This document shows, piece after piece, positions 1,660 through 19,791 of a stretch of 52,396 nucleotides of DNA. Location: NCBI GenBank assembly GCA_038249175.1, contig JBBRWP010000001.1, forward strand, positions 1 through 52,396, given 5' to 3'. Source of the DNA: Acetivibrionales bacterium. Its GTDB lineage: Bacteria > Bacillota > Clostridia > DSM-8532. The notes beneath the pieces are model-generated. The model saw nothing but the letters and a program-made list of their open reading frames with translations, did not search any database and was not told where the DNA came from. Position numbers and translations under genes: made by a program. How positions within the stretch are numbered: the stretch's first letter is position 1; each line of letters begins with the position of its first letter.

Positions 1660-2142
1660 ATGTGTAAAAATGCATTGACCGATGAAATGTTCATCAAAAT
1701 CGACAAGTATGTAGACAGTCTGCCGGAAAAACGCGGTTCTCTGATTTCCGTGCTGCACAAAGCCCAAAGCATATTTGGCTACCTGCCGAAAGAAGTGCAG
1801 CTCCATGTGGCACGAAAGCTGGATTTGCCGGCATCCAAGGTCTACGGGGTGGTCACTTTTTACTCCTTCTTTACAGAAATACCCCGTGGAGAGCATGTTG
1901 TGAACGTCTGTATGGGCACTGCCTGTTTTGTGCGTGGTGCAGAAGCCATTTTAAGGGAAGTGGAATCCCGGCTGGAGATAAAATCGGGAGGGACAACGCT
2001 GGATGGTCAATTCAGTATCGACGCCCTGCGCTGTGTCGGTGCCTGCGGTTTGGCCCCTATCATCATGGTAGATGGCAAAGTATATGGCCGTGTCAAAGTG
2101 AATGAAGTGGCCAGCATTTTAAAAGAATATATGACCGTATAA
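1660..2142 (+). CDS. hndA: NuoE/HndA-like thioredoxin-fold [2Fe-2S] subunit of NAD(P)-linked [FeFe]-hydrogenase
   Basis: Cys pattern CMGTAC ... CVGACGLAP typical of the NuoE family. First gene of a four-gene cluster with NuoF-like and HydA genes. Confidence 0.85.
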   Translation: MCKNALTDEMFIKIDKYVDSLPEKRGSLISVLHKAQSIFGYLPKEVQLHVARKLDLPASKVYGVVTFYSFFTEIPRGEHVVNVCMGTACFVRGAEAILREVESRLEIKSGGTTLDGQFSIDALRCVGACGLAPIIMVDGKVYGRVKVNEVASILKEYMTV

Positions 2143-2144
2143 AA

Positions 2145-2167
2145 CAGAAAATGCGCAGCATTTTCAG
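2145..2167 (+). repeat. REP-A hairpin-only copy (CAGAAAATGC-GCA-GCATTTTCAG) in the hndA-hndB gap
   Basis: Starts 3 nt after the hndA stop codon. Confidence 0.85.
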
Positions 2168-2209
2168 CAAATCTTTAGTCAGCTCAAAACGAAAGGAAGG
2201 ACAATCAAT

Positions 2210-2599
2210 ATGGCGATTAAATCATTGGACGAATTAAAATCCCTGCGGGATAAGTTGAAAACAGATATCAATGTGCGGTCATCCGGAGAAATCGAGTCCA
2301 ATACCCGTGTCATTGTCGGCATGGCCACCTGCGGTATTGCGGCTGGGGCCAGACCGGTATTCGCCGCCATGGTGGATGAAGCCAGAATACTGGAAATGCA
2401 TAACGTAACTTTTATTCAATCAGGCTGTATGGGTGCCTGCCACAGTGAGCCAACGGTTGAAATCAGGTTTCCTGGTAAGGATCCCATTCTCTACGGCAAT
2501 GTCACAGCAGAACTGGGTAGAGAAATTATCCGTAAGCATGTCAGAGCAGGAGAACTTGTGCAAAACCTGATTATCGGACGGCCGTTCGAAACCGTATAA
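2210..2599 (+). CDS. hndB: Small [2Fe-2S] ferredoxin-like hydrogenase subunit (HndB-like)
   Basis: MATCGIAAGA ... GCMGACHSEP cysteine pairs. RBS AAGGAAGG. Position between the NuoE-like and NuoF-like genes. Confidence 0.75.
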   Translation: MAIKSLDELKSLRDKLKTDINVRSSGEIESNTRVIVGMATCGIAAGARPVFAAMVDEARILEMHNVTFIQSGCMGACHSEPTVEIRFPGKDPILYGNVTAELGREIIRKHVRAGELVQNLIIGRPFETV

Positions 2600-2601
2600 C
2601 T

Positions 2602-2624
2602 CTGAAAATGCGTAGCTTTTTCAG
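2602..2624 (+). repeat. REP-A hairpin-only copy (CTGAAAATGC-GTA-GCTTTTTCAG, one stem mismatch) in the hndB-hndC gap
   Basis: Starts 3 nt after the hndB stop codon. Confidence 0.8.
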
Positions 2625-2678
2625 CGAAACAGCGCTTGATTGAAATGAGAGTCTTATTTATATAGTGGAGGAGAGAAC

Positions 2679-4472
2679 ATGAGCACATATAGAATGCACC
2701 TGTTGGTATGCGGTGGTACCGGATGCCAGGCATCAGAGAGCAAGCAGCTGGTAGAAAACCTGCAGGCACAAGTACTCATGGCCGGTATGGGCAATGAAGT
2801 ACAGGTGGTCACCACAGGCTGTTTCGGCTTTTGCGAAAAAGGACCCATTGTAAAAGTGTTGCCTGATAATATCTTTTATGTTGAGGTGAAACCCGATGAC
2901 GCCGAAGAAATTGTGAATGAGCATGTGATGAAGGGGCGTCCGGTCAGTCGCCTGCTCTTCACAGAACCTTCCCGCAATGAAAAAATCAGTGAACATAAAG
3001 AAATGCCTTTTTACAAAAAACAAGTGCGCATTGCCCTGCGCAATTGCGGTTTTATTGATCCGGAGAATATTGATGAGTATATTTCCGTGGACGGTTATCA
3101 AGCACTGGGAAAAGTATTAACAGAAATGACACCGGAAGCACTCATCGTCTTAATGAAGAAGAGCGGTCTCCGTGGTCGTGGCGGCGGCGGATTCCCTACC
3201 GGATTGAAGTGGGAAGCGGCATCAAAAAATCAAGCTGATGTCAAATACATCGTTTGCAACGCCGATGAAGGCGATCCGGGCGCATTTATGGATCGTTCTA
3301 TTTTAGAAGGTGATCCACACACGGTGCTCGAAGCCATGGCCATCGCAGGGTATGCTACTGGTGCACGTTATGGTTATATCTATATTCGTGCAGAATATCC
3401 GCTGGCGGTTCACCGCCTGGAAGTGGCCATTGAACAAGCAATGGAAATGGGTCTTTTAGGGGAAAATATCTTCGGAACCGATTTTTCATTTGATATTGTC
3501 ATAAAATACGGTGCCGGAGCTTTTGTCTGCGGCGAGGAAACCGCTCTCATCCACTCCATTGAAGGCGAACGTGGTGAGCCCACCAACAAGCCACCCTTTC
3601 CTGCTGAAAGCGGTCTGTGGGGAAAACCCACGTCCGTGAATAATGTTGAGACCTTTGCCAATGTGCCGCCCATCATTTTAAACGGTGCAGAGTGGTTTGC
3701 ATCCATTGGTTCTGAGAAGAGTAAAGGCACGAAAGTTTTTGCCCTGGCTGGGAAAGTCAACAATGTCGGATTGGTTGAAGTGCCAATGGGGATTGCCCTC
3801 CGTGAAATTATTTTCGATATTGGTGGAGGCATCAAAGATGGGAAAAAGTATAAGGCGGTGCAGACCGGGGGACCGTCCGGAGGCTGTATTCCTGAGGCTG
3901 GTCTTGATACGCCGATAGATTATGAAAACTTAACACGCATCGGATCTATGATGGGTTCAGGCGGTATGATTGTGATGGATGAAGATGACTGCATGGTAAA
4001 TGTGGCAAAATTTTACCTGGAATTTACCTGTGATGAATCTTGTGGCAAATGCACCCCCTGCCGTGTCGGCAATAGAAGGTTGTATGAAACACTCACCCGA
4101 ATTACCGAGGGAAAGGGCACGATGGAAGACTTGGAAACGATGAAGGAATTGGGACCCATTATCAAGGACACTGCCTTGTGTGGTCTGGGTCAAACCTCAC
4201 CGAATCCGGTGCTTTCAACCATGAAGTATTTCTGGGACGAATATGTGGCCCATGTCGTGGATAAAAAATGCCCGGCAGGTGTCTGTACGGCGTTGTTGTC
4301 TTACTATATTCTCCCGGACAAGTGTATCGGCTGCACCGCCTGTAAGCGGGTTTGCCCGGTCAGCTGTATTTCCGGTGAAGTGAAGAAAATCCATGAAATT
4401 GACCAGAGCAGATGTATCAAATGTGGCGCTTGCCATACAGCTTGTAAGTTCAGTGCCATTGTAAAGAAGTAG
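2679..4472 (+). CDS. hndC: NuoF/HndC-like flavoprotein subunit (FMN/NAD(P)H site, N-terminal 2Fe-2S, C-terminal 2x[4Fe-4S])
   Basis: VCGGTGCQA..TGCFGFCEKGP; GRGGGGFPTGLKW; CGKCTPCR; CIGCTACKRVCP and CIKCGACHTACK. RBS GGAGGAG. Confidence 0.9.
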   Translation: MSTYRMHLLVCGGTGCQASESKQLVENLQAQVLMAGMGNEVQVVTTGCFGFCEKGPIVKVLPDNIFYVEVKPDDAEEIVNEHVMKGRPVSRLLFTEPSRNEKISEHKEMPFYKKQVRIALRNCGFIDPENIDEYISVDGYQALGKVLTEMTPEALIVLMKKSGLRGRGGGGFPTGLKWEAASKNQADVKYIVCNADEGDPGAFMDRSILEGDPHTVLEAMAIAGYATGARYGYIYIRAEYPLAVHRLEVAIEQAMEMGLLGENIFGTDFSFDIVIKYGAGAFVCGEETALIHSIEGERGEPTNKPPFPAESGLWGKPTSVNNVETFANVPPIILNGAEWFASIGSEKSKGTKVFALAGKVNNVGLVEVPMGIALREIIFDIGGGIKDGKKYKAVQTGGPSGGCIPEAGLDTPIDYENLTRIGSMMGSGGMIVMDEDDCMVNVAKFYLEFTCDESCGKCTPCRVGNRRLYETLTRITEGKGTMEDLETMKELGPIIKDTALCGLGQTSPNPVLSTMKYFWDEYVAHVVDKKCPAGVCTALLSYYILPDKCIGCTACKRVCPVSCISGEVKKIHEIDQSRCIKCGACHTACKFSAIVKK

Positions 4473-4483
4473 GAGGGAATGCC

Positions 4484-6229
4484 ATGAGATTGGTGACAAT
4501 ACATATCAATGATAAGGAGCTGACCGTTCCGGACCATTACACAATATTAGAGGCTGCCAAAGAAGCGAATGTGAATATCCCGACACTTTGTCATATGGAC
4601 TTGGGGGATTTAAAAGCCGTAAATCAGGTTGCCTCCTGCCGCGTGTGCATGGTGGAAGTGGCAGGACGCCGCAATTTGGCCCCTTCCTGTGCCACAAAAA
4701 TCACGGATGGCATGGTCATCCGGACAAATACACCCCGTGCGGTGAAGGCAAGAAGAACATCGGTGGAACTCTTGCTTTCGGACCATCCGTTTGAGTGCCT
4801 GATTTGTGAGAAAAACCAAAAATGTGACTTGCAAAAATTGGCGGCCGATTTAGGCGTACGCGGACAATTGAAGTATCAAGGGTCTATGTCCACTTACGAA
4901 AAAGACGTTTCCAGCAAATCCATTTACCGTAACCTCGACAAGTGTATTCTCTGCCGTCGTTGCGAAACCATGTGCAATGAAGTGCAGACGTGTGGTATTC
5001 TTTCTGCTGTCGGCCGCGGTTTTGAAACGGTTATTTCCCCTGCCTTCTCGCTGCCCATGAGCGAAACCATGTGTACTTTCTGTGGACAGTGCGTCGCGGT
5101 TTGTCCCACGGCTGCTTTAACAGAAATCAGTTGCATCCGTGAAGTCTGGGATGTCATTAATGATCCCGAAAAGTTTGTTGTGGTGCAAACCGCTCCGGCT
5201 GTTCGTGTTGCTTTGGGGGAAGAGTTCGGTATGGAACCTGGCACCATTGTTACGGGGAAAATGACTTCTGCCCTTCGCATGATGGGCTTTGACCGTGTTT
5301 TTGACACGGACTTTGGTGCCGATTTGACCATAATTGAAGAAGCCTCTGAATTCGTGCACCGTCTGCAACACGGAGGGCGTTTGCCAATCTTGACAAGTTG
5401 CTGTCCTGCGTGGGTCAAATTCTTTGAACATCAGTTCCAGGATTTGCTGGACATTCCGTCCACCTGCAAATCCCCGCATGAGATGTTCGGTGCAGTGGCC
5501 AAAACCTATTATGCCAAAAAATACAATATCGATCCAGCGAAAATGGTGGTGGTTTCTGTGATGCCTTGCTTGGCAAAGAAGTACGAGTCCGCCCGCCCGG
5601 AACTGACTGGCGAAGGGGTTTCAAACGTGGACTACGTTGTGACTACCCGTGAGCTGGGGATGATGATTCGCGAATCCGGCATCAACTTTGTGGACTTGGA
5701 AGACAGCCAGTTTGACAACCCGCTTGGGGAATCGACCGGCGCATCTGTCATCTTCGGTGCTACCGGCGGTGTTATTGAAGCAGCCCTGCGAACTGCTTAT
5801 GAATGGCTGACCGGAGAAACGTTGGAACAGGTAGAATTCCATGCACTGCGTGGTTTGGATGGCATTCGTGAAGCCACAGTAAAAGTGGGGGATTTGGAAG
5901 TAAAGATTGGTGTGGCGCATGGACTTGGCAATGCCAGAAAACTTCTGGAAGCCATTCGAAGCGGTGAAGCCAACTACCATGCCATTGAGATTATGGCTTG
6001 TCCCGGCGGATGCGTTGGTGGCGGGGGACAACCGTATCACCATGGTGATTCTGAAATTATAAAGAAACGTACCGAAGCCATTTATCGTGAAGATGCCGGG
6101 AAACAAAAACGCAAGTCACATGAAAACGAGCAGGTCATGACCTTATACAAAGAATTCCTCGGGGAATTCTATGGTGACAAAGCGCATGAATTGCTCCACA
6201 CGCACTACACGGCAAGAGAAAAAATATAG
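4484..6229 (+). CDS. hndD: [FeFe]-hydrogenase catalytic subunit (HydA/HndD type)
   Basis: N-terminal 2Fe-2S and 4Fe-4S motifs. Canonical H-cluster motifs TSCCPAW, MPCLAKKYE, EIMACPGGCVGGGGQP. Confidence 0.93.
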   Translation: MRLVTIHINDKELTVPDHYTILEAAKEANVNIPTLCHMDLGDLKAVNQVASCRVCMVEVAGRRNLAPSCATKITDGMVIRTNTPRAVKARRTSVELLLSDHPFECLICEKNQKCDLQKLAADLGVRGQLKYQGSMSTYEKDVSSKSIYRNLDKCILCRRCETMCNEVQTCGILSAVGRGFETVISPAFSLPMSETMCTFCGQCVAVCPTAALTEISCIREVWDVINDPEKFVVVQTAPAVRVALGEEFGMEPGTIVTGKMTSALRMMGFDRVFDTDFGADLTIIEEASEFVHRLQHGGRLPILTSCCPAWVKFFEHQFQDLLDIPSTCKSPHEMFGAVAKTYYAKKYNIDPAKMVVVSVMPCLAKKYESARPELTGEGVSNVDYVVTTRELGMMIRESGINFVDLEDSQFDNPLGESTGASVIFGATGGVIEAALRTAYEWLTGETLEQVEFHALRGLDGIREATVKVGDLEVKIGVAHGLGNARKLLEAIRSGEANYHAIEIMACPGGCVGGGGQPYHHGDSEIIKKRTEAIYREDAGKQKRKSHENEQVMTLYKEFLGEFYGDKAHELLHTHYTAREKI

Positions 6230-6425: not shown

Positions 6426-7271
6426 TTATCTGGTTTTCATCGTCTGAAGGGGGACATCCTGCCAAACACCACCCATCAAAACACGTTGTTTGGTGAACCC
6501 GATGGCCAAAAGTTTTGGACGGACTTCCATATAGGCAAAATCTACCTGTTGCGGGTTATGGACGTCGGAATTGAGCACAATTGAGATGCCAGCTTTTTGG
6601 ATCTCCTCCAATATCCACCATGATGGATAAGGATTGTCCATATAGCCACGGGCCATGCCCCCGGTATTTACTTCGATAATCACCTCTGAAAGAGAGGCAA
6701 CGTCAAGGGTTTTCATAATTTCCTCCTGGTACCAGGGTTCATCTTCATCGAAGAATTTACCATTGGCATTGTTCTTTCTAAAGACATCCATATGGGAAAG
6801 AATGCTTGGCGGCATCGTCATCATCATGTCGCGCAGGGTGCTGTAGTACGCTTCTCCAAACAGTTGAATATCCCCGTTGAAACCCTGTTCCAGAGAATCC
6901 TTGAATTCCTTCATGCTGCCATCCACCTGATGTACCGCATCCGTGACAGGGTTGATTAAAAAATGGACGCCGCCCAAGGTATATTGAATTCCCGGTACTG
7001 TTCTCCAATCGGTGCATCCCGGAAAATAATCTGCTTCCAGGCCGGTGTAGAGTTCTATTTGATCCGTATATTTTTCTTTGAGGCGCTGCGTTTCATGTAC
7101 GTACGCATACAAATCTGCTAAACGCATGTTCCAGTCGGTATCAAAGGGCAGAGGGGCATGGCTGGAAAAGCCGAAGGCTGAAAAACCTTTATCAATGGCG
7201 GAACGGACATATTCTTCCGGTTCCCCTTTACCGTCACAAAAACGGCTGTGGGAATGGTAATTTACAATCAA
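6426..7271 (-). CDS. PHP-family histidinol-phosphatase (HisJ/HisK type)
   Basis: N-terminal YHSHSRFCDG metal motif and about 280-aa length typical of PHP histidinol phosphatases. Confidence 0.75.
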   Translation of the reverse strand: MIVNYHSHSRFCDGKGEPEEYVRSAIDKGFSAFGFSSHAPLPFDTDWNMRLADLYAYVHETQRLKEKYTDQIELYTGLEADYFPGCTDWRTVPGIQYTLGGVHFLINPVTDAVHQVDGSMKEFKDSLEQGFNGDIQLFGEAYYSTLRDMMMTMPPSILSHMDVFRKNNANGKFFDEDEPWYQEEIMKTLDVASLSEVIIEVNTGGMARGYMDNPYPSWWILEEIQKAGISIVLNSDVHNPQQVDFAYMEVRPKLLAIGFTKQRVLMGGVWQDVPLQTMKTR

Positions 7272-7642
7272 TGTTTTATCCTCCGGCTAGGCAGATGTTC
7301 TATTTAGCGAATCAACGGCCTGTAAACCTTGTAACCTCAAAAATGTTGCTTTTTGTCGACGGCGCCTTTATTATACTGGTTCTGGTCCACGATGAAAAGG
7401 GGATGATCGCATTTTGGAGGAGAGAATTGGCGCAGATATGGAAATGGTTCTGTTCTTTTGCCTACACATTGTTATGACAAGGGAGGAGAACGCAATATAT
7501 TGAAAAAAAATGAAACTTTCTTGCATCCGTTTTCGCGCATATGATATGATGTTGCTGGCATAAAGTTTTTTGTTTTTGAAGGCAGGAAGAAGGAGCCTAC
7601 ATTTGGAGTGGTAGGGTTTTTCCCTGAAAAAACATGAGTTTA

Positions 7643-7845
7643 CAGATTTATACCCCATGCGTCCTCGGCGAGTTCGCACAAAACCTGCTGAAAATGCTCC
7701 GCATTTTCAGAGTTGTCCCCCATGCATCCTCGTCGCGTTCGCACAAAACCTGCTGAAAATGCTGCGCATTTTCAGGTTTTATACCCCATGCATCTCGTCG
7801 AGTTCGCATAAAAACCTGCTGAAAATGCTCCGCATTTTCAGATTG
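7643..7845 (-). repeat. Three head-to-tail REP-A units in reverse orientation (hairpins 7688-7710, 7753-7775, 7819-7841; period 65-66 bp)
   Basis: Reverse complement matches the 1301-1367 unit. Lies in the divergent region between the phosphatase gene and the LysM-protein gene. Confidence 0.9.
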
Positions 7846-7931: not shown

Positions 7932-9269
7932 ATGGGTAACGTGATCAGAATCAATGCGTGTCTTTTTACTAGAATGGGCTATGGCAGAAGCCGCAATACA
8001 ACCGACTTTTATATGAACGGGCGATTTCAATCGCCACTGAACCTGGATAACCTACAAGCATCTTTGGAAAATCGCGGCAGTGACTATCTTTTCTCTCTTG
8101 CAGACCATATGGAAAATGCGGCAGACACGACGGCCAGCGTTTCCATTAGCAAAGAAATGCTACGTTTGCATGAGAAAATCTCCGTACAGAACGGGGATAT
8201 GAATGATAAAGTACGTGAGCTGTCTTCCAGAATTGGTGGGGCTGCCAGAATGCTTGACAGTATTCTCGATATGAACCATACATCGGAAACTGATGAGTTC
8301 CGAAGATACGGTTTTTCTTCCTTTGTTTTTTCAGGGGGTACCGTGGTTGCAGCAACTGTTGCTTATGGTCATGCATTTTTGTACCGTGAAGATGGCCTGC
8401 AAACATTGGCAAAAGATACGTCAGAACGGGGTAAACTGGTACGCCTTGGGGTCTTGTCGGAGGAAGAGGCGGGACGGGAAGAATTGGATATCCCGGAAAG
8501 CGAAGACGTTACCGATGAACTGACCGACAGCCCTGTGATATTCTCTGAGCCTATCCCTTTTTGTGAAAATGATACCTATTTGCTCATCAGCCAGGGTGCC
8601 TATGAAGCCCTCAATGAAGAGCGGATTGAAGATATTCTGGGAGAAGGCGGAGACAGCACACATTTTGCTGCCAGAATAGTTTCGGAAGCAATGAAACGGA
8701 CGTCCCATGGAGATTTGTCCGCCATGGTGGTTCAGGTTGAAAAGATTTATGATGTGCAGGGATCAGCTCACCGGCCTGCCCTAAAGGCGCGTGTGGATGC
8801 TTTGAGTCGTACACCGCCGGTTACCTACAAATACAACCGGAAACCCAGAGGAAAAGACGGCTTCATTTTTGCCGGCTTAATGGGCTTAACTGCCATTGTA
8901 TTCATTGCCATTTTGGCCATCATCATCTCTTCTTTTTTTGGATCTGAAGACCCTGCTAAAGTGGCATCCGACACGCCGGCCCCCAGTATACATGCAAGTG
9001 CTATGCCGGAAGTAAGTCCTGAAGTGGTTGTTACCCCGGAACCGGAAGGCGCCGTGACACCGGAACCGACCCCGGAGCCTACGTCTGTAGTGAATAACCC
9101 GGATACCTACACAATACAAAAAGGAGATACCATGAGTGGCATTGTCAGGAAGCTCTATGGCGATGTAAAGTACCTGGATGCTTTTTCTTCCTATAACAAG
9201 ATTTCCGATCCCGCTAAAATACAGCCGGGGCAAGTCTTGAAGGTACCATTGGTTGACGCTTTACAGTAA
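7932..9269 (+). CDS. Single-pass membrane protein: degenerate PP2C-like cytoplasmic domain, TM helix, Pro/Glu-rich linker, C-terminal LysM
   Basis: PP2C-like blocks with altered metal ligands (LADHMEN, YLLISQGAYEAL, GDLSAMVVQV). TM GFIFAGLMGLTAIVFIAILAIIISSFF. LysM YTIQKGDTMSGIVRKLYG...IQPGQVLKVP. Confidence 0.65.
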   Translation: MGNVIRINACLFTRMGYGRSRNTTDFYMNGRFQSPLNLDNLQASLENRGSDYLFSLADHMENAADTTASVSISKEMLRLHEKISVQNGDMNDKVRELSSRIGGAARMLDSILDMNHTSETDEFRRYGFSSFVFSGGTVVAATVAYGHAFLYREDGLQTLAKDTSERGKLVRLGVLSEEEAGREELDIPESEDVTDELTDSPVIFSEPIPFCENDTYLLISQGAYEALNEERIEDILGEGGDSTHFAARIVSEAMKRTSHGDLSAMVVQVEKIYDVQGSAHRPALKARVDALSRTPPVTYKYNRKPRGKDGFIFAGLMGLTAIVFIAILAIIISSFFGSEDPAKVASDTPAPSIHASAMPEVSPEVVVTPEPEGAVTPEPTPEPTSVVNNPDTYTIQKGDTMSGIVRKLYGDVKYLDAFSSYNKISDPAKIQPGQVLKVPLVDALQ

Positions 9270-9322: not shown

Positions 9323-9354
9323 AAAAGCCGTTTCCTTTTATGGAAACGGCTTTT
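9323..9354. terminator. Hairpin terminator after the LysM-protein gene
   Basis: AAAAGCCGTTTCC-TTTTAT-GGAAACGGCTTTT. A-run and T-run on either side, so potentially bidirectional. Confidence 0.75.
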
Positions 9355-9640
9355 CGTATCTTTTCGTATCTTTTCGTATCTTTTCGTATCTTTTCGTATC
9401 TTTTCGTATCTTTTCGTATCTTTTCGTATCTTTTCGTATCTTTTCGTATCTTTTCATGCCTTTATGTGCCTTTACGTGTCTTTTCATGCCTTTTCGTATC
9501 TTTTCATGTCTTTATGTGTCTTTATGTGCCTTTACGTGTCTTTTCATGCCTTTTCGTATCTTTTCATGTCTTTATGTGTCTTTATGTGCCTTTACGTGTC
9601 TTTTCATGCCTTTACGTATCTTTTCATGTCTTTTCATGTT
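9351..9640. repeat. 29 consecutive 10-bp units starting TTT(T/A) (TTTTCGTATC x10, then variants), with an exact 60-bp higher-order duplication (9481-9540 = 9541-9600)
   Basis: Direct reading. The register stays exactly 10 bp for 290 bp. ORFs predicted here (9279-9856) are repeat artefacts. Confidence 0.95.
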
Positions 9641-9688: not shown

Positions 9689-10924
9689 TTATGTTTCTTT
9701 TTCAAGCAACATCTTCATCAGCATATACGCCTCTGCAACAAAAATCCCTTCTGCGGCAGTTTTTTCTGTGAAATATTTTTTTTGATTCGGCACGGCCGCA
9801 TTTTTCCGGCTGTCAAACAGCAAAAATGGTACCGGGTCATGTGTATGGGTTCTTAGTACGATGGGTGTGGGATGGTCCGGGAGGATGAGCATACGAAAAT
9901 CGCCCAACGCAGGCAGATCCTCCAGCAACACCGAGAGCAACTCGGCATCAATCCGTTCAATGGCTTTAACTTTGTCTTCTGCCTGTCCCTGGTGACCACA
10001 TTCATCCGGCGCTTCGACATGCAGGTAGACAAAGTCTTTGCCATGGGCCAGTTGGTCCATGGCGGCTTGCGCTTTTCCACGATAGTTTGTATGTAAATTA
10101 CCAGTCGCTCCAACCACGTCAATCGATGTCAGCCCGGCGGCCATACCGATACCCTTGATCAGGTCCACGGCTGAGATGACAGCCCCGGATACACCAAACA
10201 TTTCCTGAAAGGATGTGAGCGCGGGGCGGCTGCCCTGACCCCAAAGCCAGATAGCATTGGCCGGATTCAATCCGCGTTTTATGCGGGAACAGTTCACCGG
10301 ATGGTCTTTCAGCACAGCCAATGATTTCTCAATCAGACTAACTGCAAGTTCAGCACCAGGTCCAGCAGGCAGGTATTCCCGGATGCCTTTGCCACTGATG
10401 TCATGCGGTGGTGTGAGCCGTATGTCCAGTGGACCATTTTCCCACAAAAGGCAATGTCGATAGCTGATGCCGGGATGAAAGGTGTGGCTGCCATCCCTGG
10501 ATTTATCAGGTGAATCCAGTGCTTTGGCAATGGCTGCCATGAGGATGCGGGATTCTTCTGTGGTAATTTCACCGGCGCTGTAATCTTCCATGGTGCGTTC
10601 TGCTAGAGGACCGTCCCCGCCCAGGGTGACCAGGTTACACCGTAGCGCCGTGTCGTTTTCCTTCATGGAAACGCCCATGCTGATGGCTTCCAAGGGAGAG
10701 CGGCCGGTATAATATGTCTCCGGCTTGTAGCCAAAGACAGAAAGGTTGGCTACATCACTGCCTGCCGGCATATGGTCCGGCACGGTTTTGGATAAACCTG
10801 TTAGTGCCGTTTCAAAGAGGCTGTCCATATTGGGTTTATACGCTTTTTCCATTGGTGTCAGTCCGTCCAATGCGGGAACCGGGGTATCAGCCATGCCGTC
10901 GCATAGTAAAACAATGGTTTTCAT
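9689..10924 (-). CDS. apgM: Cofactor-independent phosphoglycerate mutase, archaeal ApgM-type (alkaline-phosphatase superfamily)
   Basis: N-terminus MKTIVLLCDGMADTP and HVEAPDECGHQG motif, about 410 aa. Confidence 0.75.
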   Translation of the reverse strand: MKTIVLLCDGMADTPVPALDGLTPMEKAYKPNMDSLFETALTGLSKTVPDHMPAGSDVANLSVFGYKPETYYTGRSPLEAISMGVSMKENDTALRCNLVTLGGDGPLAERTMEDYSAGEITTEESRILMAAIAKALDSPDKSRDGSHTFHPGISYRHCLLWENGPLDIRLTPPHDISGKGIREYLPAGPGAELAVSLIEKSLAVLKDHPVNCSRIKRGLNPANAIWLWGQGSRPALTSFQEMFGVSGAVISAVDLIKGIGMAAGLTSIDVVGATGNLHTNYRGKAQAAMDQLAHGKDFVYLHVEAPDECGHQGQAEDKVKAIERIDAELLSVLLEDLPALGDFRMLILPDHPTPIVLRTHTHDPVPFLLFDSRKNAAVPNQKKYFTEKTAAEGIFVAEAYMLMKMLLEKET

Positions 10925-11089: not shown

Positions 11090-11206
11090 TTATTATAGAT
11101 GCAAAATGTGTTTGTGTCGAATAGTAAAGGGTTCAGGCAGAATTGTTGGTTCGTGCGATACGTCGTAATCGGTACAACGGCTGTCTTGAAGAATATGGAG
11201 GTTGGT

Positions 11207-11407
11207 ATGGCTAAAGTCACTGGGGATATGATTATTATGGATGTGCTGCAGATGGATCGTAAAACGGCACCCATTTTTATGCAGCACGGGATGCATTGTA
11301 TCGGATGTCCTTCTGCATCTGGCGAAAGCATCGACGATGCTTGCATGGTGCATGGCATCGATCCGACAAAGCTGGTTGATGCGTTGAATACGCACTTTTC
11401 AGCTTAA
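11207..11407 (+). CDS. DUF1858 / hybrid-cluster-protein-associated redox disulfide protein
   Basis: GMHCIGCPSASGESIDDAC motif. GGAGG 5 nt upstream of ATG 11207; the longer track ORF from 11099 has no RBS. Confidence 0.7.
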   Translation: MAKVTGDMIIMDVLQMDRKTAPIFMQHGMHCIGCPSASGESIDDACMVHGIDPTKLVDALNTHFSA

Positions 11408-11630
11408 CGGGTTTTTGACAGAAAAAAAGAGCTACCGTTCTCACTTGTTGAAACGGATTGGCTTATCAATGCCGGGGTTAGGAAACTCCGGCATTTTTAA
11501 AGGAATGAACTGATGTAGGGTATCGTTGTTTTTTAGACGCGTCTGCTTTTTATTTCTTTCACGCAGGTTTATGCGTGAAGCTTTGCCTATGCAGTAGTTT
11601 TTCAATAACGTATATGTCAGCGATACACTA

Positions 11631-11759
11631 CACTAGTGTACTGTCTTGTTGATATATAGCTAATATATGGCTTAATAAAAACCGGTAATCATTATAGTTG
11701 GAAATATGAATCACTGAACCTGTTATTATGTTAAATTTGAACCAGACAGTACACTAGTG
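11631..11759. repeat. Perfect 15-bp inverted repeat pair CACTAGTGTACTGTC ... GACAGTACACTAGTG flanking 99 AT-rich bp (operator pair or MITE-like unit)
   Basis: Arms at 11631-11645 and 11745-11759 are exact reverse complements. The first arm lies within the 12-bp palindrome TACACTAGTGTA (11629-11640). A TTGATA-N17-TTAATA promoter-like sequence lies between the arms. Confidence 0.8.
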
Positions 11760-11802: not shown

Positions 11803-12150
11803 ATGCATATTCAAGAAATAGCAGAGATTTTGGACGCTCAGATTCACACGGTTGCGGAAGAAGAGAATTTTGAGATATTTTCTGCCTGCGGCGCAGATTT
11901 GATGAGTGATGTGATGGCGTTTTCAAAGGAAAATGCCATGATGATTACCGGTCTTGTGAATCCGCAAGTTATTCGGACAGCGGAAATGATGGACATCCGC
12001 GTCGTTGTGTTCGTCCGGGGAAAAAAGCCGCAGGAATGCATGATTTCAATGGCGCAGGAACGGAATATTTCTGTTCTGTCCACAGAATTGCCCATGTTCA
12101 CAGCCTGTGGACGACTTTATATGAACGGCATTCATGGCCGCGGAGAATAA
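11803..12150 (+). CDS. DRTGG-domain protein
   Basis: About 115 aa, sequence pattern like stand-alone DRTGG proteins found next to hydrogenase-like sensors. Recognised by eye only. Confidence 0.55.
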   Translation: MHIQEIAEILDAQIHTVAEEENFEIFSACGADLMSDVMAFSKENAMMITGLVNPQVIRTAEMMDIRVVVFVRGKKPQECMISMAQERNISVLSTELPMFTACGRLYMNGIHGRGE

Positions 12151-12151
12151 A

Positions 12152-12583
12152 ATGGATACCCATGTCATTGTACGAGAATATACCATCCCTAAGAATGATT
12201 TTGTTGTGGCGGGTGAGGCATCGAGCGGTATGCGCAAAATGCTGAATCAGATGGGCGTTGCACCGGCTGTTGTGAAACGGGCTTCCATTGCCATGTACGA
12301 AGCAGAGATTAATGCAGTGATCCACGGCCATGGCGGTCATGCTACAGTGGAGATATACCCGGAAAAGGTCAGCATCTGCATAAAAGATGAAGGCCCGGGC
12401 ATTGCTGATGTGGCTTTGGCCATGCAGGAAGGCTACTCCACTGCACCGGATAGCATCCGGGAAATGGGTTTTGGTGCCGGTATGGGGCTTTCCAACATAA
12501 AAAAGCAATCCGACCACTTCTCAATCGTAAGCGAGCCGGGTGTTGGCACGGAGGTTTTTATTGTTGTCTATTTCAACGCGTGA
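12152..12583 (+). CDS. GHKL-type ATPase / anti-sigma-factor-like serine kinase (RsbW/SpoIIAB fold)
   Basis: N-box YEAEINAVIHG and G-boxes DEGPGI, GFGAGMGLSNI. ATG 12152 preceded by GGAGA, 1 nt after the upstream stop. Confidence 0.75.
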   Translation: MDTHVIVREYTIPKNDFVVAGEASSGMRKMLNQMGVAPAVVKRASIAMYEAEINAVIHGHGGHATVEIYPEKVSICIKDEGPGIADVALAMQEGYSTAPDSIREMGFGAGMGLSNIKKQSDHFSIVSEPGVGTEVFIVVYFNA

Positions 12584-12649
12584 AAAACAGGCACCCCGAA
12601 AAAGGGTGTTGCAGTCAGGCCAATTTTGTTTTGAACTACATTAAGAAAC

Positions 12650-12858
12650 GAACAAATCGGGGGAAGAACCGTGCCACAAGAATACGATCACTCTGTGACA
12701 CTGGACAAAGAAATGTAAAAAAGAACAAATCGGGAGAAGAACTGTGCCACAAGAATACGACCATTCTGTGGCACTGAACTAAGAAATGTAAAAAAGAACA
12801 AATCGGGGGAAGAACCGTGCCACAAGAATACTATCACTCTGTGACACTGGACAAAGAC
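12650..12858 (+). repeat. 73-bp unit present three times in tandem (12650, 12723, 12796), each carrying RBS GGGGGAAG/GGGAGAAG, a GTG start and the first 11-13 codons of the hydrogenase-like gene
   Basis: Direct alignment. Copies 1 and 2 end in stop codons, giving mini-ORFs 12671-12718 (MPQEYDHSVTLDKEM) and 12744-12782 (MPQEYDHSVALN). Copy 3 continues into the 428-aa ORF. Confidence 0.9.
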
Positions 12859-14103
12859 AAGTGCAAAGGCTGTACCAATTGCATCAAACATTGTCCGACA
12901 GAAGCCATACGGGTTAGAAACGGAAAAGCGGAGATTACACGGGAACGCTGCATTGACTGTGGTGAGTGCGTGCGTGTCTGTCCTTACCATGCCAAAAAAG
13001 CAGTCAGCGACCCTATTGAAGTTATCCACAACTACCCGTATAAAATTGCCCTGCCGGCACCCTCTTTTTATGGTCAATTCAGCCCGGCTTATGGGCGGGA
13101 AAAAATACTGCAGGCGCTCTTGCAGATAGGTTTTGATGATGTGTTTGAAGTGGCAGCCGGCGCCGAAGTGGTGTCAGATGCCACAAAACGATACCTGGAG
13201 AATCACCTGGTGAAGAAACCGGTCATTTCAACCGCCTGTCCGGCCGTTGTACGCCTGGTACAGGTGCGTTTCCCTATTTTGCTGGAGAACCTCCTGCACA
13301 TCGATTCACCGATGGAAGTGGCGGCGGCACTGGCCAAAAGAAGAGCGGCCAAGAAAACCGGTTTGCCAATGAAAGACATTGGTGCCTTTTTTCTTTCCCC
13401 GTGTGCCGCAAAGGTAACCAGTGTGAAGGCACCGTTTGGAAAAGAAAAGTCGGATGTGGATGCCGTTTTTGCAATGAAGGACATTCACCTTTCAATGATA
13501 GAACAACTGAAAAAAATGAATGAAATGCCAACAGTCAAGAGAACCATGGCTGGTCCGGCCGGTGTACTGTGGGCATGTACCGGGGGTGAAAGTGACAAAA
13601 TGAGCGGCGAAAAACACCTGGCTGTTCATGGTATTGCCAATGTCATTGCCATTTTAGAGGAGACGGTAGAAGAGCGCCTGGAAGATGTCGATTTTATTGA
13701 AGCGCTTTCCTGTATTGAAGGTTGTTTGGGTGGCCCGTTAACCATAGAAAATCCTTTTGTAGCCAAGGCAAACTTAAAGGCGGTTATGGCAGCGGCCAAA
13801 CAAGAAGACTTTAACGAGGACTGTTATGTTTCGGATCCGGAAGAATTGGTGTGGACAAGAGAAATGGCCTATATTCCTGTTTTAAAGCTGGATGATGATA
13901 TGACGAAGGCCCTTGAAAAGCTGCAAAGAATTGATGAAATTGATGAAGGATTGCCGGGATTGGACTGTGGTGCCTGTGGCGCACCCTCCTGCCGTGCTTT
14001 GGCAGAAGATATTGTGCGGGGTATTGCCAAAGAAACAGATTGTGTGGTCAAACTCCGTGAAAAGGTCAGCGACTTTGTCCATCGTATGGGAGATTTCGCG
14101 TAG
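12817..14103 (+). CDS. Sensory-type [FeFe]-hydrogenase-like protein (2x[4Fe-4S] + modified H-domain + C-terminal CX2CX4C Fe-S domain)
   Basis: CKGCTNCIKHCP and CIDCGECVRVCP. H-cluster motifs altered to STACP, SPCAAK, EALSCIEGCLGGP. C-terminal CGACGAPSC. GTG start with RBS GGGGGAAG. Confidence 0.8.
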   Translation: MPQEYYHSVTLDKDKCKGCTNCIKHCPTEAIRVRNGKAEITRERCIDCGECVRVCPYHAKKAVSDPIEVIHNYPYKIALPAPSFYGQFSPAYGREKILQALLQIGFDDVFEVAAGAEVVSDATKRYLENHLVKKPVISTACPAVVRLVQVRFPILLENLLHIDSPMEVAAALAKRRAAKKTGLPMKDIGAFFLSPCAAKVTSVKAPFGKEKSDVDAVFAMKDIHLSMIEQLKKMNEMPTVKRTMAGPAGVLWACTGGESDKMSGEKHLAVHGIANVIAILEETVEERLEDVDFIEALSCIEGCLGGPLTIENPFVAKANLKAVMAAAKQEDFNEDCYVSDPEELVWTREMAYIPVLKLDDDMTKALEKLQRIDEIDEGLPGLDCGACGAPSCRALAEDIVRGIAKETDCVVKLREKVSDFVHRMGDFA

Positions 14104-14322
14104 CTATTGCAATTTTGGAAGTATTGATTGTGGATAGTGTTATGTTCGAAGTGTCTTTGGCATGAACTGGTACAGCTGTTCTCATGTCCGATATGTGTTT
14201 TAGGCACTGAGACAGCCATTCCATGGCATAAAATAGTGATTGTGATGCTGCCGATATCCGGCAGGTAGTAAGATTTTGGATAACAATCCTGTTATAAAAA
14301 ATATTGAACTAAGGGGTAAAAA

Positions 14323-14676
14323 ATGACAGTCACAGAGTTTGCAGCTCAAGGGCATTATGCTATTCTCACATGCGAAGCAGACGCTGCGCACAAAAATATA
14401 AGTGGCGTGTATGTCTGTGATTTGCTAAGTTGGGCAATGGCGAAAATTTCTTCCGGCGACGTGTGGATTACCGTACACACCAACTTGAATGTGGTGGCGG
14501 TTGCTCTGTTAACAGATGCGTCTTGTGTGGTTATCCCCGAGGGCATATTGGTAGAACAAAGCACACTGGACCGTGCCGACAATCAGGGTATTATTTTATT
14601 GTCTGCCAAAGAGGGCGCAGCGCAGATTGTTTTACAAACGGCAAAATGCCTGAAGATGGATGGGATGTCAGGATGA
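14323..14676 (+). CDS. Second DRTGG-domain protein
   Basis: 117 aa, similar architecture to 11803-12150. RBS AAGGGG. Stop overlaps the next start (ATGA). Confidence 0.55.
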   Translation: MTVTEFAAQGHYAILTCEADAAHKNISGVYVCDLLSWAMAKISSGDVWITVHTNLNVVAVALLTDASCVVIPEGILVEQSTLDRADNQGIILLSAKEGAAQIVLQTAKCLKMDGMSG

Positions 14677-15395
14677 ATCTACCCTACGATTTGCATATTC
14701 ACTCCTGTTTATCCCCTTGTTGCGATGATGATATGACGCCTTGCAACATCGTGAATATGTCAGAACTGAAAGAGCTTAAAATTATCGCAGTGTCAGATCA
14801 CAACACTGTTGGAAATATCGGTGCTGTGATGACAGCGGCAAAAGGAAAAGACCTCCTGGTTGTTCCGGCAATGGAATTGTGCACGTCAGAAGAAATTCAC
14901 CTGCTGTGTCTTTTCCCGTCATTGCCTGCAGCAGAATCTTTTGAGGCCTTCGTTCTTTCTGCCGGCCCACTGGTTTTGAACCGGCCGGACATCTTCGGAA
15001 ACCAGTGGAAAATGGATGCAGAAGATATTGTGTTGGGCACAGAAAAAAGAATGCTCATTGCCGCTGCCAATATGGACATGTCAGAGGCGCTATCGCTATT
15101 GCAAGGACTTGGCGGCATGGCTATTCCGGCCCATATCGACCGGGATGCTTATGCCATGGGTGCTACACTGGGCACAATACCCAAAGAATATGGATTTCAT
15201 ACGGTTGAAATATCCAGGCAGGCGACAGTTGAACAGGTTTTACAACAATATCCTGAAATTGCACAGATGAACCTGCTGTTCAATTCTGATGCACACCATC
15301 TTTGGGATATCTCGGAACCAGAGCATTTTATTGAAGTGGAAGTATGTAGCATTCCGGCTTTGTTTGCATCATTACAACGGGATATAAAAATCTGA
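14673..15395 (+). CDS. PHP-domain phosphoesterase
   Basis: N-terminal YDLHIHSCLSPCCDD (HxH metal motif), later DHN, PAHIDR and SDAHH. Start chosen at the ATGA overlap rather than the track start 14430. Confidence 0.75.
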   Translation: MNLPYDLHIHSCLSPCCDDDMTPCNIVNMSELKELKIIAVSDHNTVGNIGAVMTAAKGKDLLVVPAMELCTSEEIHLLCLFPSLPAAESFEAFVLSAGPLVLNRPDIFGNQWKMDAEDIVLGTEKRMLIAAANMDMSEALSLLQGLGGMAIPAHIDRDAYAMGATLGTIPKEYGFHTVEISRQATVEQVLQQYPEIAQMNLLFNSDAHHLWDISEPEHFIEVEVCSIPALFASLQRDIKI

Positions 15396-15597
15396 AAATG
15401 CGCAGCATTTTCAGCAAATTTTGTGCAAACTCACCGAGGATGCATGGGGTAAAAATCTGAAAATGGCAAAATTTTATCACTTTTTGTGCCTGAGCGAAGC
15501 GAAAGGAATGTCTAAAATCTGAAAATGCGCAGCATTTTCAGAAAGTTTTGTGTGAACTCAACGAGGACGTATGAGGCATAAAATTTGAAAATGCGCT
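15392..15597 (+). repeat. REP-A array: intact hairpins at 15392-15414 and 15519-15541, degenerate copies at about 15457 and about 15584
   Basis: The TGA stop of the PHP gene (15393-15395) lies inside the 5' arm of the first hairpin. Confidence 0.9.
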
Positions 15598-18820: not shown

Positions 18821-18996
18821 CAAAAAGTCACTTAGTGACTTTTTGGTGCAATTTATCACCAGATAACTTGCACCAGCATTTGCAGAATGCTGGGTAATCG
18901 TGATAATTTGTCCCGGATTGCAACTTTGTTGCAATTCCCCGCAAGAAAACTTGTGGGGAAAAGTCGTGAAACGACTTTCTGGGGTACAATCAGATT
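18821..18996. repeat. Run of six different short perfect or near-perfect hairpins, ending in a family-B copy (18959-18996)
   Basis: CAAAAAGTCAC-TTA-GTGACTTTTTG; GGTGCAA..TTGCACC; CAGCATT-TGCAG-AATGCTG; ATTGCAAC-TTT-GTTGCAAT; CCCCGCAAG-AAAA-CTTGTGGGG; AAAGTCGT-GAA-ACGACTTT. Confidence 0.8.
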
Positions 18997-19426
18997 ATGC
19001 TTCATTCAAAGGAACCAGTAACGTGATGCGTGTGCCCTGCGGGCTGTTTGGAACAATATGAATATCCTCAGAAAGGCTTTCCAGGATGGAAAAGGCCCAG
19101 CCTCTTGCGTAGAGGTCATCGTCCGACAAGGCGACCCGATTGAACTTTGGGTCATTGGCTTTCATGCCCTTGCCTTCATCGGCAATCTCGAGACGGATGA
19201 CATCACCACAGTGTGTCATGGAAACTGTCACGAGACCAGGTTGTTTACCATAGCCGTGCTCAACAGCATTTTGTGTCAGTTCATCCACAGCGGTTTTGAG
19301 AAGGAAACGTGCATGGACTTTTGTGGTCATCGAAAGAATGGCCGATTCGCACAAATTGACGAAGCGGTCGATGCTTTCCGGGGTGTAATCGACTCGGGCA
19401 GACAGTTGGAATTCTTGAATCTCCAT
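18995..19426 (-). CDS. Orphan RsbW/SpoIIAB-like GHKL serine kinase (anti-sigma-factor type)
   Basis: ELTQNAVEHG N-box and ADEGKGM G1-box, about 143 aa. No STAS protein or sigma factor gene nearby. Confidence 0.7.
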   Translation of the reverse strand: MEIQEFQLSARVDYTPESIDRFVNLCESAILSMTTKVHARFLLKTAVDELTQNAVEHGYGKQPGLVTVSMTHCGDVIRLEIADEGKGMKANDPKFNRVALSDDDLYARGWAFSILESLSEDIHIVPNSPQGTRITLLVPLNEA

Positions 19427-19502: not shown

Positions 19503-19771
19503 GAGATGAAAACAATGCGTGCGGGTTTGGATCATGTAGGGATGAAAAATGCAAGAAAACTTGCTGAACACGGGATGCAAATATGCGTGCGGGTTTGGAT
19601 CATGTAGGGATGCAAATATGCGAGAAAACTTGCTGCACGCGGGATGAAAACAATGCGAGAAAACTTGCTGAACACGGGATGCAAATATGCGAGAAAACTT
19701 GCTGAACACGGGATGAAACAATACGTGGTCTCTTGCTTAATACGGGATGAATACAATGCATAGGTTGTTGC
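19503..19771 (+). repeat. Eight tandem 33-36-bp units all starting G(G/A)GATG(A/C)AA, in two alternating subtypes (..GCGTGCGGGTTTGGATCATGTA / ..GCGAGAAAACTTGCTGAACAC)
   Basis: Direct reading. Fills most of the divergent intergenic region and ends 20 bp before the rsmF-like start. Confidence 0.9.
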
Positions 19772-19791
19772 TTTATTAGAAAGGGTTTTTC

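Follow-up and report, generated by a model that had tools for sequence, protein, structure and literature searches.

Group D (M2e) [FeFe] hydrogenases have been proposed as sensors, since they are encoded upstream of bifurcating hydrogenases and in the vicinity of kinases (Carere 2012, PMC3561251; Land 2020, PMC8163306). In TamHydS of Thermoanaerobacter mathranii the group is marked by Ala at the position of C299, Ser and Leu in place of two Met residues, a C-terminal Cx2Cx4Cx16C motif and the lack of a PAS domain (Land 2020, PMC8163306); group C enzymes carry Gly and Ser where group D has Ser (M353) and Leu (M497) (PMC8163306). Cthe_0335 and TTE0887 belong to the same class as TamHydS (Carere 2012, PMC3561251). 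TamHydS turns over H2 slowly, its specific activity being lower than in group A enzymes by orders of magnitude, and a proton path running E252-E289-S249-D265 has been proposed for it (Cabotaje 2023, PMC10407848); Asp residues beside the C-terminal cluster cysteines and Lys/Arg residues of the N-terminal domain have also been highlighted (Schumann 2026, PMC13104023). Group D enzymes are presumed H2 sensors and are intensively studied, and how their signal is relayed is a question of the whole family rather than of any single locus. We analyzed a stretch of 52,396 nucleotides from an Acetivibrionales bacterium (GenBank assembly GCA_038249175.1, contig JBBRWP010000001.1, positions 1 to 52,396 of the forward strand; hereafter, the window), in which a gene of this type, hydS, is embedded in a cassette with genes for two DRTGG proteins, a GHKL ATPase and a PHP-family phosphoesterase. 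An earlier description made from the DNA letters (the sequence-only reading) had interpreted this module as an H2-responsive kinase/phosphatase switch uncoupled from the catalytic hydrogenase operon of the same window. We find that the five-gene cassette around the group D enzyme is widespread and that the window holds an intact copy of it, the enzyme type itself being already known.

HydS is very probably a group D hydrogenase

The cassette comprises five genes:

11803-12150, forward strand: DRTGG1, a single-domain protein of 115 amino acids matching Pfam DRTGG
12152-12583, forward strand: minimal GHKL ATPase of the SpoIIAB/RsbW type, 143 amino acids, matching HATPase_c and HATPase_c_2
12817-14103, forward strand: HydS, a putative sensory [FeFe] hydrogenase from group D (M2e), 428 amino acids, GTG start
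14323-14676, forward strand: DRTGG2, a diverged DRTGG paralog of 117 amino acids, recognized by profile comparison with DRTGG1
14673-15395, forward strand: PHP-family trinuclear-metal phosphoesterase, 240 amino acids, assigned from its structural model and metal ligands

We assign the open reading frame at 12817-14103 with high confidence to group D (M2e), as a TamHydS-type [FeFe] hydrogenase with a putative sensory role. Pfam searches identified the Fe_hyd_lg_C domain (120.8 bits), two N-terminal Fer4 motifs (C16/19/22/26 and C45/48/51/55) and a PF04060 FeS domain at residues 379-410 (50.9 bits), within which C384-x2-C387-x4-C392-x16-C409 reproduces the Cx2Cx4Cx16C motif. The same searches found no PAS domain, and the protein stops 19 residues past C409; membership in group C (M2f), whose HydS proteins bear a C-terminal PAS domain, was thereby ruled out. 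At least 8000 clusters belong to the HydS family, and all 120 of the best-listed matches share the PF02906+PF04060 architecture. The best sequence matches of HydS in the Protein Data Bank (PDB) were to group A-type and other catalytic [FeFe] hydrogenases (E ~1e-22), no group C or D structure being present in the copy searched.

HydS was aligned with HndD, the catalytic subunit encoded in the same window, with HydA from other loci and with group D homologs. All four cysteine ligands of the H-cluster are kept (C141, C196, C299 and C303). The proton-relay cysteine (C299 in CpI) is replaced by Ala140 (VISTACP in HydS, LTSCCP in HndD), M353 by Ser194 (LSPC versus VMPC), M497 by Leu297 (EALSC) and S319 by Leu160; the position of E279 is not acidic, and the GGGGQP loop is shortened, with EALSCIEGCLGG---P in HydS where HndD has EIMACPGGCVGGGGQP. 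The residues of the proposed group D proton path are found as E258, E295 and Thr255 (TamHydS E252, E289 and S249). TamHydS D265, the outermost residue of that path, corresponds to His271, a His that is nearly invariant among the close homologs aligned, while other group D homologs (L035, L023, L047 and L077) have Asp there. D383 and D408, which lie beside cysteines of the C-terminal cluster, and K37 and K60 of the N-terminal domain are invariant in the alignment. The sequence-only reading had noticed the kept ligands, the changed STACP and SPC motifs and the altered loop, as well as two N-terminal 4Fe-4S motifs, a C-terminal Fe-S domain and no PAS; all of these were seen again here, and its view of HydS as a sensory-type paralog lacking the group A proton pathway agrees with the published group D residues (PMC8163306, PMC10407848). 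With a complete H-cluster site, three accessory 4Fe-4S sites and no fast proton pathway, HydS should be able to bind and slowly turn over H2, serving as a scaffold competent for H2 binding rather than as a carrier of metabolic flux.

Inheritance of the five genes as a unit

We searched 80 loci from other species (HydS identity 49-81%) by tblastn with the proteins of the window; HydS-matching stretches numbered at least 595 in the one-genome-per-species collection. The order DRTGG1-GHKL-HydS-DRTGG2-PHP was complete in 67 of the 80 loci. Contig ends cut a further nine, which are consistent with the full order, and four deviate; all four of these keep the GHKL-HydS pair, and three retain nothing else. 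The GHKL gene was found wherever the contig reached, the deviant loci included. A cassette of these five genes is also present in a Thermoanaerobacteraceae homolog whose HydS is 54% identical to that of the window (L035). That 67 of 80 loci repeat one gene order is far beyond chance. Across hundreds of genomes of the Clostridia type the genes travel together as a unit, both beside a hydrogenase operon and away from one. A lack of co-conservation was among the findings that the sequence-only reading had named as refuting it, and the survey shows the genes to be co-conserved.

Sequence divergence separates the genes into two sets. Median identity to the window was 53-55% for DRTGG1, GHKL and HydS and 41-44% for DRTGG2 and PHP, so that the first three evolve at one rate and the last two faster. 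The junctions, for which starts were chosen heuristically, were at most 10 nt in 85% of loci between DRTGG1 and GHKL and in 68% between DRTGG2 and PHP, with a 4-nt overlap the commonest form of the latter; between GHKL and HydS they were typically ~38 nt. In the window, the DRTGG1 stop codon (12148-12150) is followed one base beyond by the GHKL ATG at 12152, and the DRTGG2 stop overlaps the PHP start in an ATGA at 14673-14676, the two tight junctions that had been pointed out before. DRTGG1+GHKL and DRTGG2+PHP are two tightly spaced, probably co-translated pairs flanking the sensor. A 219-bp spacer lies 5' of DRTGG2 in the window.

Hairpins lie on both sides of the cassette:

11470-11499, forward strand: hairpin followed by a T-run (tgccgggg-ttaggaaa-ctccggca-ttttta), read from the sequence, 3' of a DUF1858 gene
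15392-15414, forward strand: terminator-like hairpin CTGAAAATGCGCAGCATTTTCAG with a T-rich tail, overlapping the PHP stop codon (15393-15395)

The upstream hairpin, which a simple terminator scanner did not flag, is likely a terminator that fixes the 5' limit of the cassette's own transcription unit. The downstream one forms the first copy in an array of ~65-bp repeats at 15387-15596. Given the flanking hairpins and the gene junctions, the co-oriented genes look like a single transcription unit, and the region from ~11.5 to 15.4 kb looks like a self-contained five-gene operon.

Two of the deviant loci carry other genes beside the GHKL-HydS pair. In L037 (11401-13314) the gene after the pair encodes a hydrogenase joined to the signaling domain of a methyl-accepting chemotaxis protein (MCP), and in L041 (9050-9517) CheW precedes it; neither has the DRTGG or PHP genes. 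These neighbors hint at an H2-taxis wiring of the same GHKL-HydS core and indicate that the core has a signaling character. They bear on whether HydS is a sensor at all. It could be a slow, specialized catalytic hydrogenase, used as a safety valve or for redox poise, with its neighbors serving stability or maturation; TamHydS does turn over H2 through a proton pathway of its own (E252/E289, here E258/E295; PMC10407848), and group D is not known to give a sensor output. We regard this as improbable: the activity of TamHydS lies orders of magnitude under that of group A (PMC10407848), the partners of HydS are signaling-type domains, placed beside CheW or MCP in the variant loci, and no electron-carrier partner gene is conserved beside HydS.

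Accessory proteins of the cassette

The sequence-only reading had named the flanking genes as two DRTGG proteins, an RsbW-like GHKL ATPase and a PHP phosphoesterase, and profile searches, hhalign and predicted structures agree on these families. DRTGG1 scored 29.3 bits against the Pfam DRTGG model (cutoff, 25.2), and DRTGG2 scored 20.5 bits, under the cutoff; comparison of DRTGG2 with the DRTGG1 profile by hhalign gave E 6.6e-5 over 96 aligned columns. The AlphaFold2 (AF2) model of DRTGG1 (mean predicted local distance difference test score [pLDDT], 86) folds like AF1212 (2ioj; template modeling [TM] score, 0.83) and the DRTGG domain of CBS-pyrophosphatase (range, 0.77-0.83), with a weaker structural match to the N-terminal domain of HprK/P. 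Among 36 homologs, 36 positions of DRTGG1 are invariant, including DLMSDVMA and TGL.NP.V.RT.EMM; the nearly invariant family signature DLMSDVMA...TGLxNPQVxRTAEMM...FVRGKKP replaces the eponymous GDR/DRTGG residues. The DLMSDVMA stretch sits in the block of lowest confidence within the domain model. S35, T49, T59 and T94 of DRTGG1, also invariant, would be candidate phosphosites. Judged by these alignments, DRTGG1 is among the best-conserved proteins of the cassette, strikingly so for 115 amino acids.

The GHKL protein matched HATPase_c (45 bits) and HATPase_c_2 (41 bits) in Pfam, and SpoIIAB was its only sequence match in the PDB (E 5e-5). Its ATP-binding boxes EAEINAVIHG, DEGPGI and GFGAGMG align with those of SpoIIAB (E/N box, DEGxGI and GMG). 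A SpoIIAB/RsbW-like ATPase, putatively a Ser kinase or a protein-binding switch, seems to us a fair description.

The PHP protein had no Pfam match at E<=0.01, PF02811 included, although most of its homologs do carry PF02811; NCBIfam matches to PHP-containing families, among them 3',5'-nucleoside bisphosphate phosphatase and RNase RNM, covered the N-terminal part only. Its metal ligands (HxH, DH, E, H and DxH; H8, H10, D42, H43, E68, H76, H154, D206 and H208) are invariant in 39 homologs, which argues that the protein is probably an active phosphoesterase. In a Foldseek search of the PDB, the AF2 model (pLDDT, 95) matched PHP structures with E 4e-11 to 3e-7 and query-normalized TM scores (TMq) of 0.55-0.75. 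The leaders were the PHP domain of EndoQ (TMq, 0.73-0.75), RNase AM, TrpH/Cv1693-type pAp phosphatases, TM0559 and the PHP domain of Pol III; histidinol phosphatases ranked far down the list. We had considered a CpsB/YwqE-like protein phosphatase and rejected it, as no such enzyme was among the top 50 matches. The "PHP phosphatase" of the sequence-only reading, taken as a protein phosphatase, is therefore unsupported.

These structural neighbors raise the prospect of a nucleotide or RNA output, in which the PHP protein would be a nuclease or nucleotide phosphoesterase that turns the H2 signal into the turnover of a signal nucleotide or of particular RNAs, with the DRTGG proteins as ligand-binding adaptors. 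Both the Foldseek leaders, with no PHP-type protein tyrosine phosphatase in the top 50, and the NCBIfam matches point that way, and DRTGG domains do occur in nucleotide-regulated enzymes such as CBS-pyrophosphatase. In CBS-pyrophosphatase, however, nucleotides bind the CBS domains and not the DRTGG domain. The PHP protein is just 13-20% identical to the enzymes in question, it lacks the zinc-finger and DNA-binding parts of EndoQ (240 versus 400 amino acids), and fold neighbors do not fix a substrate. We therefore consider such an output unlikely.

The cassette is detached from its usual partner operon

The sequence-only reading placed the window's catalytic operon 5.5 kb from the cassette behind four unrelated genes, and the layout is as follows:

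1660-6229, forward strand: hndABCD-type operon (NuoE-like, HndB, NuoF-like and HydA), assigned with Pfam and NCBIfam
6426-7271, reverse strand: PHP-family gene, between hnd and the cassette
7932-9269: LysM gene, between hnd and the cassette
9689-10924, reverse strand: phosphoglycerate-mutase-like gene, between hnd and the cassette
11099-11407: DUF1858 gene, directly upstream of the cassette

We measured 5574 bp from the end of hnd to DRTGG1, a stretch that holds the four genes listed, and pyrK comes after the cassette. Elsewhere the cassette usually accompanies a hydrogenase operon of the form NuoE-X-HndB-NuoF-HydA: it lies directly upstream and co-oriented in 39 of the 80 loci and divergent in nine (linked in 48 altogether). 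In 24 of the 80, no NuoE-type operon lies within 10 kb of the cassette; detachment is thus not special to the window. Gene X encodes a protein of ~185 amino acids with a histidine-kinase-type ATPase (CA) domain, a tail of ~80 amino acids and no DHp domain (e.g., L010:4413-5006). It was found between nuoE and hndB in 40 loci, always in a cassette-coupled operon. It is absent from the whole window, where the nuoE-hndB gap is only 67 bp (2143-2209).

In the HydS tree, the window belongs to a monophyletic clade with L001-L007 and L009, in which the cassette precedes pyrK-pyrD, with no hydrogenase operon, wherever flanks are visible. A 4.9-Mb genome whose HydS is 79% identical (L081; GCA_942493335.1) has the same detached arrangement. 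From the tree and these flanks, detachment is fixed in the window's clade. Other detached loci are scattered over the tree, indicating that detachment arose at least five times with the cassette staying intact.

To compare the window's hnd operon with its relatives, metagenome contigs were scanned with HndD, which retrieved 80 operons of 62-90% identity. None of the 80 had a cassette within 10 kb, and none of these hnd operons, which we term clade I, contained gene X. Only one contig (L082, which is the contig of L002) links such an hnd operon to a cassette, with hnd ~13 kb upstream. A neighbor-joining (NJ) tree of 125 catalytic HydA subunits, drawn from two samples that are each biased by how they were retrieved, grouped the window's HndD with 78 module-less hnd operons, and all 40 of the cassette-coupled HydA proteins fell in another clade (clade II); four "upstream" operons of distinct architecture fell with the group of the window's HndD. 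NCBIfam models did not split the two clades, as every protein passed the same broad A6 model (at 860-954 bits); the basis for the split is the NJ tree together with operon content. The neighboring hnd operon thus probably represents a different HydA clade and is not the cognate operon of the cassette, a point made here for the first time.

Because the window's HndD belongs to a different clade and gene X is lacking, the usual partner operon, the presumed target of the cassette, is not in the window. The claim that the module is uncoupled from the catalytic operon therefore holds in that no partner operon is adjacent, and it is weakened in taking hnd for the detached partner. The further claim that the target is not encoded here, drawn from a module in which STAS proteins, sigma factors and DNA-binding proteins are all missing, is strengthened by the clade split.

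Upstream of hnd we noted a Rex-box-like palindrome, TTGTTACGAAATTAACAA (1624-1641), 18 nt before the hndA ATG and with one mismatch to TTGTTAANNNNTTAACAA, which suggests NADH/NAD-responsive repression of hnd. We also looked for Rex control of the cassette and dismissed it, as no Rex-box-like site precedes the cassette. An 11-bp repeat, CCTGGACAAAC, occurs in ~8 copies at 1469-1566, just upstream of hndA.

The operon data bear on a further explanation, in which the five proteins directly regulate an enzyme and do not control transcription: they would dock on the NuoEF-type hydrogenase via the clade-II orphan ATPase and throttle its activity post-translationally in response to H2, acting in this organism on an unlinked clade-II enzyme or, re-targeted, on the clade-I Hnd. 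Whatever the arrangement class, neither the cassette nor its immediate neighborhood encodes a DNA-binding protein; the ~185-amino-acid gene with only a HATPase_c domain occurs in 40 loci, all cassette-coupled, and in none of the 80 clade-I operons; and the Rex-box-like site supplies a candidate for redox control of hnd transcription that the cassette does not share. On the other side, the cassette outlasts repeated detachment from any hydrogenase operon, and no orphan HATPase_c gene of the X type exists in the window. On balance we think this explanation is rather unlikely, though it is the least so of the alternatives that we considered.

Having lost its partner operon, the cassette might also be a drifting, non-functional relic. 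Its layout is less compact than that of relatives, being loosened by a 233-bp gap containing a triplicated start, the 219-bp gap and an inverted repeat; there is no clade-II operon in the 52 kb; and His271 stands where TamHydS has D265. Yet all five open reading frames are full length, every catalytic and ligand residue is intact, and none of the local oddities (triplication, spacers and repeats) breaks a reading frame. The detached arrangement also extends clade-wide, down to ~58% HydS identity, with all five genes kept, which argues for long-term purifying selection and makes a relic very improbable.

Repeats and neighboring sequence

Two of these oddities are placed as follows:

12646-12867, forward strand: three tandem copies of a 73-bp unit that holds the ribosome-binding site, GTG start and initial ~15 codons of hydS, found with Tandem Repeats Finder (TRF)
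11631-11658 and 11732-11759: inverted repeat upstream of DRTGG1, with 28-nt arms that are 86% complementary and 73 nt apart

TRF reported a period of 73, 2.9 copies and 88% matches, and a repeat search found the copies to be 89-92% identical. Copies 1 and 2 form decoy mini-open reading frames of 15 and 12 codons (MPQEYDHSVTLDKEM and MPQEYDHSVALN), and copy 3 holds the real start at 12817. The triplication is absent from relatives, in which the aligned GHKL-HydS spacing has a median of 56 bp, against 233 bp in the window. Metagenome contigs were searched for exact matches that would reveal strains with other copy numbers of the 73-bp unit, and none turned up.

The inverted repeat is not conserved in the shorter upstream regions of relatives and is lineage-specific; it may be an insertion resembling a miniature inverted-repeat transposable element (MITE) or a stem in the 5' untranslated region. 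We also examined two palindromes upstream of DRTGG1, CTACACTAGTGTAC and GTACACTAGTGGTA, as a shared operator. Since 20 of 100 shuffled sequences reached two matches and the palindromes are unconserved in relatives, this candidate was set aside, and they are better read as arms of a local inverted repeat. A search of the long intergenic gaps for riboswitches and other known RNAs at Rfam gathering thresholds returned only one tRNA in the whole window.

The dispersed family of ~65-bp tandem repeats to which the downstream hairpin belongs is intergenic and present in both orientations (15387-15596; 7639-7844, reverse complement; and ~1298-1372). Its unit consists of the hairpin CTGAAAATGCGCAGCATTTTCAG and then a T-rich tail and is terminator-like. 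Other arrays lie at 9350-9639, 19515-19773 and 43736-43957, and unrelated tandem arrays of 34-65 bp fill intergenic regions.

Among neighboring genes, the DUF1858 gene (11099-11407) encodes a hybrid-cluster-protein-associated redox-disulfide domain (TIGR03980, 94 bits). It directly precedes the cassette in the window, in L002-L005 (the loci for which the upstream flank was recovered) and in L081, which may reflect either an addition specific to the clade or nothing more than synteny. Another orphan GHKL gene of the RsbW/SpoIIAB-like kind lies at 18995-19426 on the reverse strand (143 amino acids; HATPase_c_2, 50 bits), with no STAS or sigma factor gene nearby, and keeps its place downstream of the pyr genes in L002, L003, L009 and L081, the clade with the detached cassette. 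L081 also encodes, at 12510-15527 between PHP and pyrK, a hybrid sensor kinase of 1005 amino acids (PAS-GAF-PAS-HisKA-HATPase_c-receiver); in the window this interval contains only repeats. Unrelated to the cassette, an open reading frame of 2924 amino acids at 24152-32926 contains glucoamylase-like and GH94 domains and resembles a cyclic beta-1,2-glucan synthase/phosphorylase.

Discussion

The reading that we prefer, to which we give a probability of about one half, is a pathway of H2 signaling. In this outline, reduction of the HydS H-cluster by H2 would bring about a change in conformation or redox state that the SpoIIAB-like GHKL ATPase, docked via DRTGG1, would sense. The ATPase would then phosphorylate a partner, for which a DRTGG protein is the likeliest candidate, or exchange partners in an ATP-dependent manner, and the DRTGG2-PHP pair would reset the state by phospho-ester hydrolysis. 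The output would act in trans on a protein encoded elsewhere, as suggested by a cassette that has come through at least five independent detachments intact. In most genomes its target is presumably the adjacent clade-II NuoE-X-HndB-NuoF-HydA operon or enzyme, possibly reached via the embedded orphan ATPase. A kinase/phosphatase switch is plausible.

Several points weigh against this outline. In TamHydS, the C-terminal cluster keeps the same redox state under H2 (Schumann 2026, PMC13104023), which removes one proposed relay, and group D is still termed functionally undefined (Greening 2024, PMC11216029). The best NCBIfam match of the GHKL protein, spIIAB, reached 56 bits against a cutoff of 135, and the RsbW model gave 25.8 bits against 145. 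Neither a STAS antagonist nor a sigma factor was found in the cassette, in the surveyed flanks of the window or among recurrent neighbors in the 80 loci, and the GHKL protein, failing on score and lacking these partners, was rejected as an equivalog of SpoIIAB or RsbW. The idea that a DRTGG protein mimics a STAS domain was likewise dropped, because the fold search returned only DRTGG and HprK N-terminal domains. No DRTGG protein is known to serve as a kinase substrate. The closest structural relatives of the PHP protein act on nucleic acids or nucleotides, not on phosphoproteins, and the retrieval bias behind the HydA tree must be counted here as well.

More tentatively, the cassette may be an undescribed partner-switching module, with HydS as the receptor, GHKL as the switch or kinase, DRTGG proteins in place of STAS domains or adaptors, PHP in place of PP2C and an output in trans, here freed from its ancestral clade-II operon and maybe retargeted; we hold this specific version to be doubtful. 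We found no literature linking DRTGG or PHP proteins to hydrogenases, nor any paper that resolves the signal output of the module, in keeping with the sequence-only reading, which knew of no experimental account of it.

For the relay question of the family, our analysis offers candidates: the fixed five-gene cassette, the fast-evolving DRTGG2-PHP pair, the DRTGG1-GHKL-HydS set evolving at one rate and the orphan ATPase gene that marks coupled operons. H2 sensing in fermenters bears on interspecies hydrogen transfer, on the H2 balance of rumen and gut and on engineering ethanol or H2 yield in Clostridia.

Comparison with known systems

The PHP protein shares the PHP barrel and the full set of metal ligands with EndoQ (5zb8, 7k30), RNase AM (7ug9, 9etk) and TrpH/Cv1693-type enzymes (2yb1, 3o0f). 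It differs from them in sequence (15-20% identity), in lacking the extra domains of EndoQ and in that a closely spaced DRTGG2 gene always comes before its own, in most cases with an overlap or a gap of at most 10 nt. The DRTGG proteins have the fold of AF1212 (2ioj) and of the insert in the Clostridium perfringens CBS-pyrophosphatase (3l2b, 3l31), with TM scores of 0.77-0.83, but are stand-alone proteins of 115-117 amino acids with no CBS domains and a signature of their own.

Among signaling systems, the SpoIIAB-SpoIIAA-SpoIIE and RsbW-RsbV-RsbU modules similarly combine a GHKL protein of ~145 amino acids, small single-domain partners and a phosphoesterase in one operon. The cassette, in contrast, lacks STAS, PP2C and sigma factor components, has DRTGG partners and a PHP hydrolase, and its GHKL protein falls short of the SpoIIAB model (56 versus 135 bits). 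In the HoxBC-HoxJ-HoxA system of Ralstonia eutropha (PMC5707799), a crippled hydrogenase serves as an H2 receptor coupled to a kinase-type ATPase, as we propose for HydS. The [NiFe] metal site and protein family are unrelated to HydS, however, and HoxJ is a PAS-bearing histidine kinase with the response regulator HoxA, whereas no response regulator or DNA-binding output is linked to the cassette.

Group C (M2f) enzymes, such as Thermotoga maritima HydS, Ruminococcus albus HydS and Thermoanaerobacterium HfsB (PMC8924675, PMC5707799, PMC11837493), resemble HydS of the window in having lost the proton-relay cysteine, in their N-terminal clusters and C-terminal 4Fe-4S cluster, in an H2-sensing role proposed for both and in lying near hydrogenase operons and kinase/phosphatase-type genes. 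Group C proteins end in a PAS domain, and their partners are Ser/Thr kinases and phosphatases of the PP2C/SpoIIE type, whereas the window's HydS lacks PAS and has as partners a GHKL protein resembling SpoIIAB, the two DRTGG proteins and the PHP enzyme.

The closest likeness is to TamHydS (PMC8163306, PMC10407848, PMC13104023), with which HydS shares the domain order (two [4Fe-4S] motifs, the H-domain, then Cx2Cx4Cx16C) and the lack of PAS, together with Ala at C299, Ser at M353, Leu at M497, the E252/E289 equivalents, the Asp residues beside the C-terminal cluster cysteines and the Lys/Arg residues of the N-terminal domain. It differs in that D265 is His271 in the window's subclade, in that the start region is triplicated and in that the cassette does not precede a bifurcating hydrogenase operon, a context that is typical of TamHydS-type genes without defining them. 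The window thus adds a natural "detached" case to this family rather than a new kind of system.

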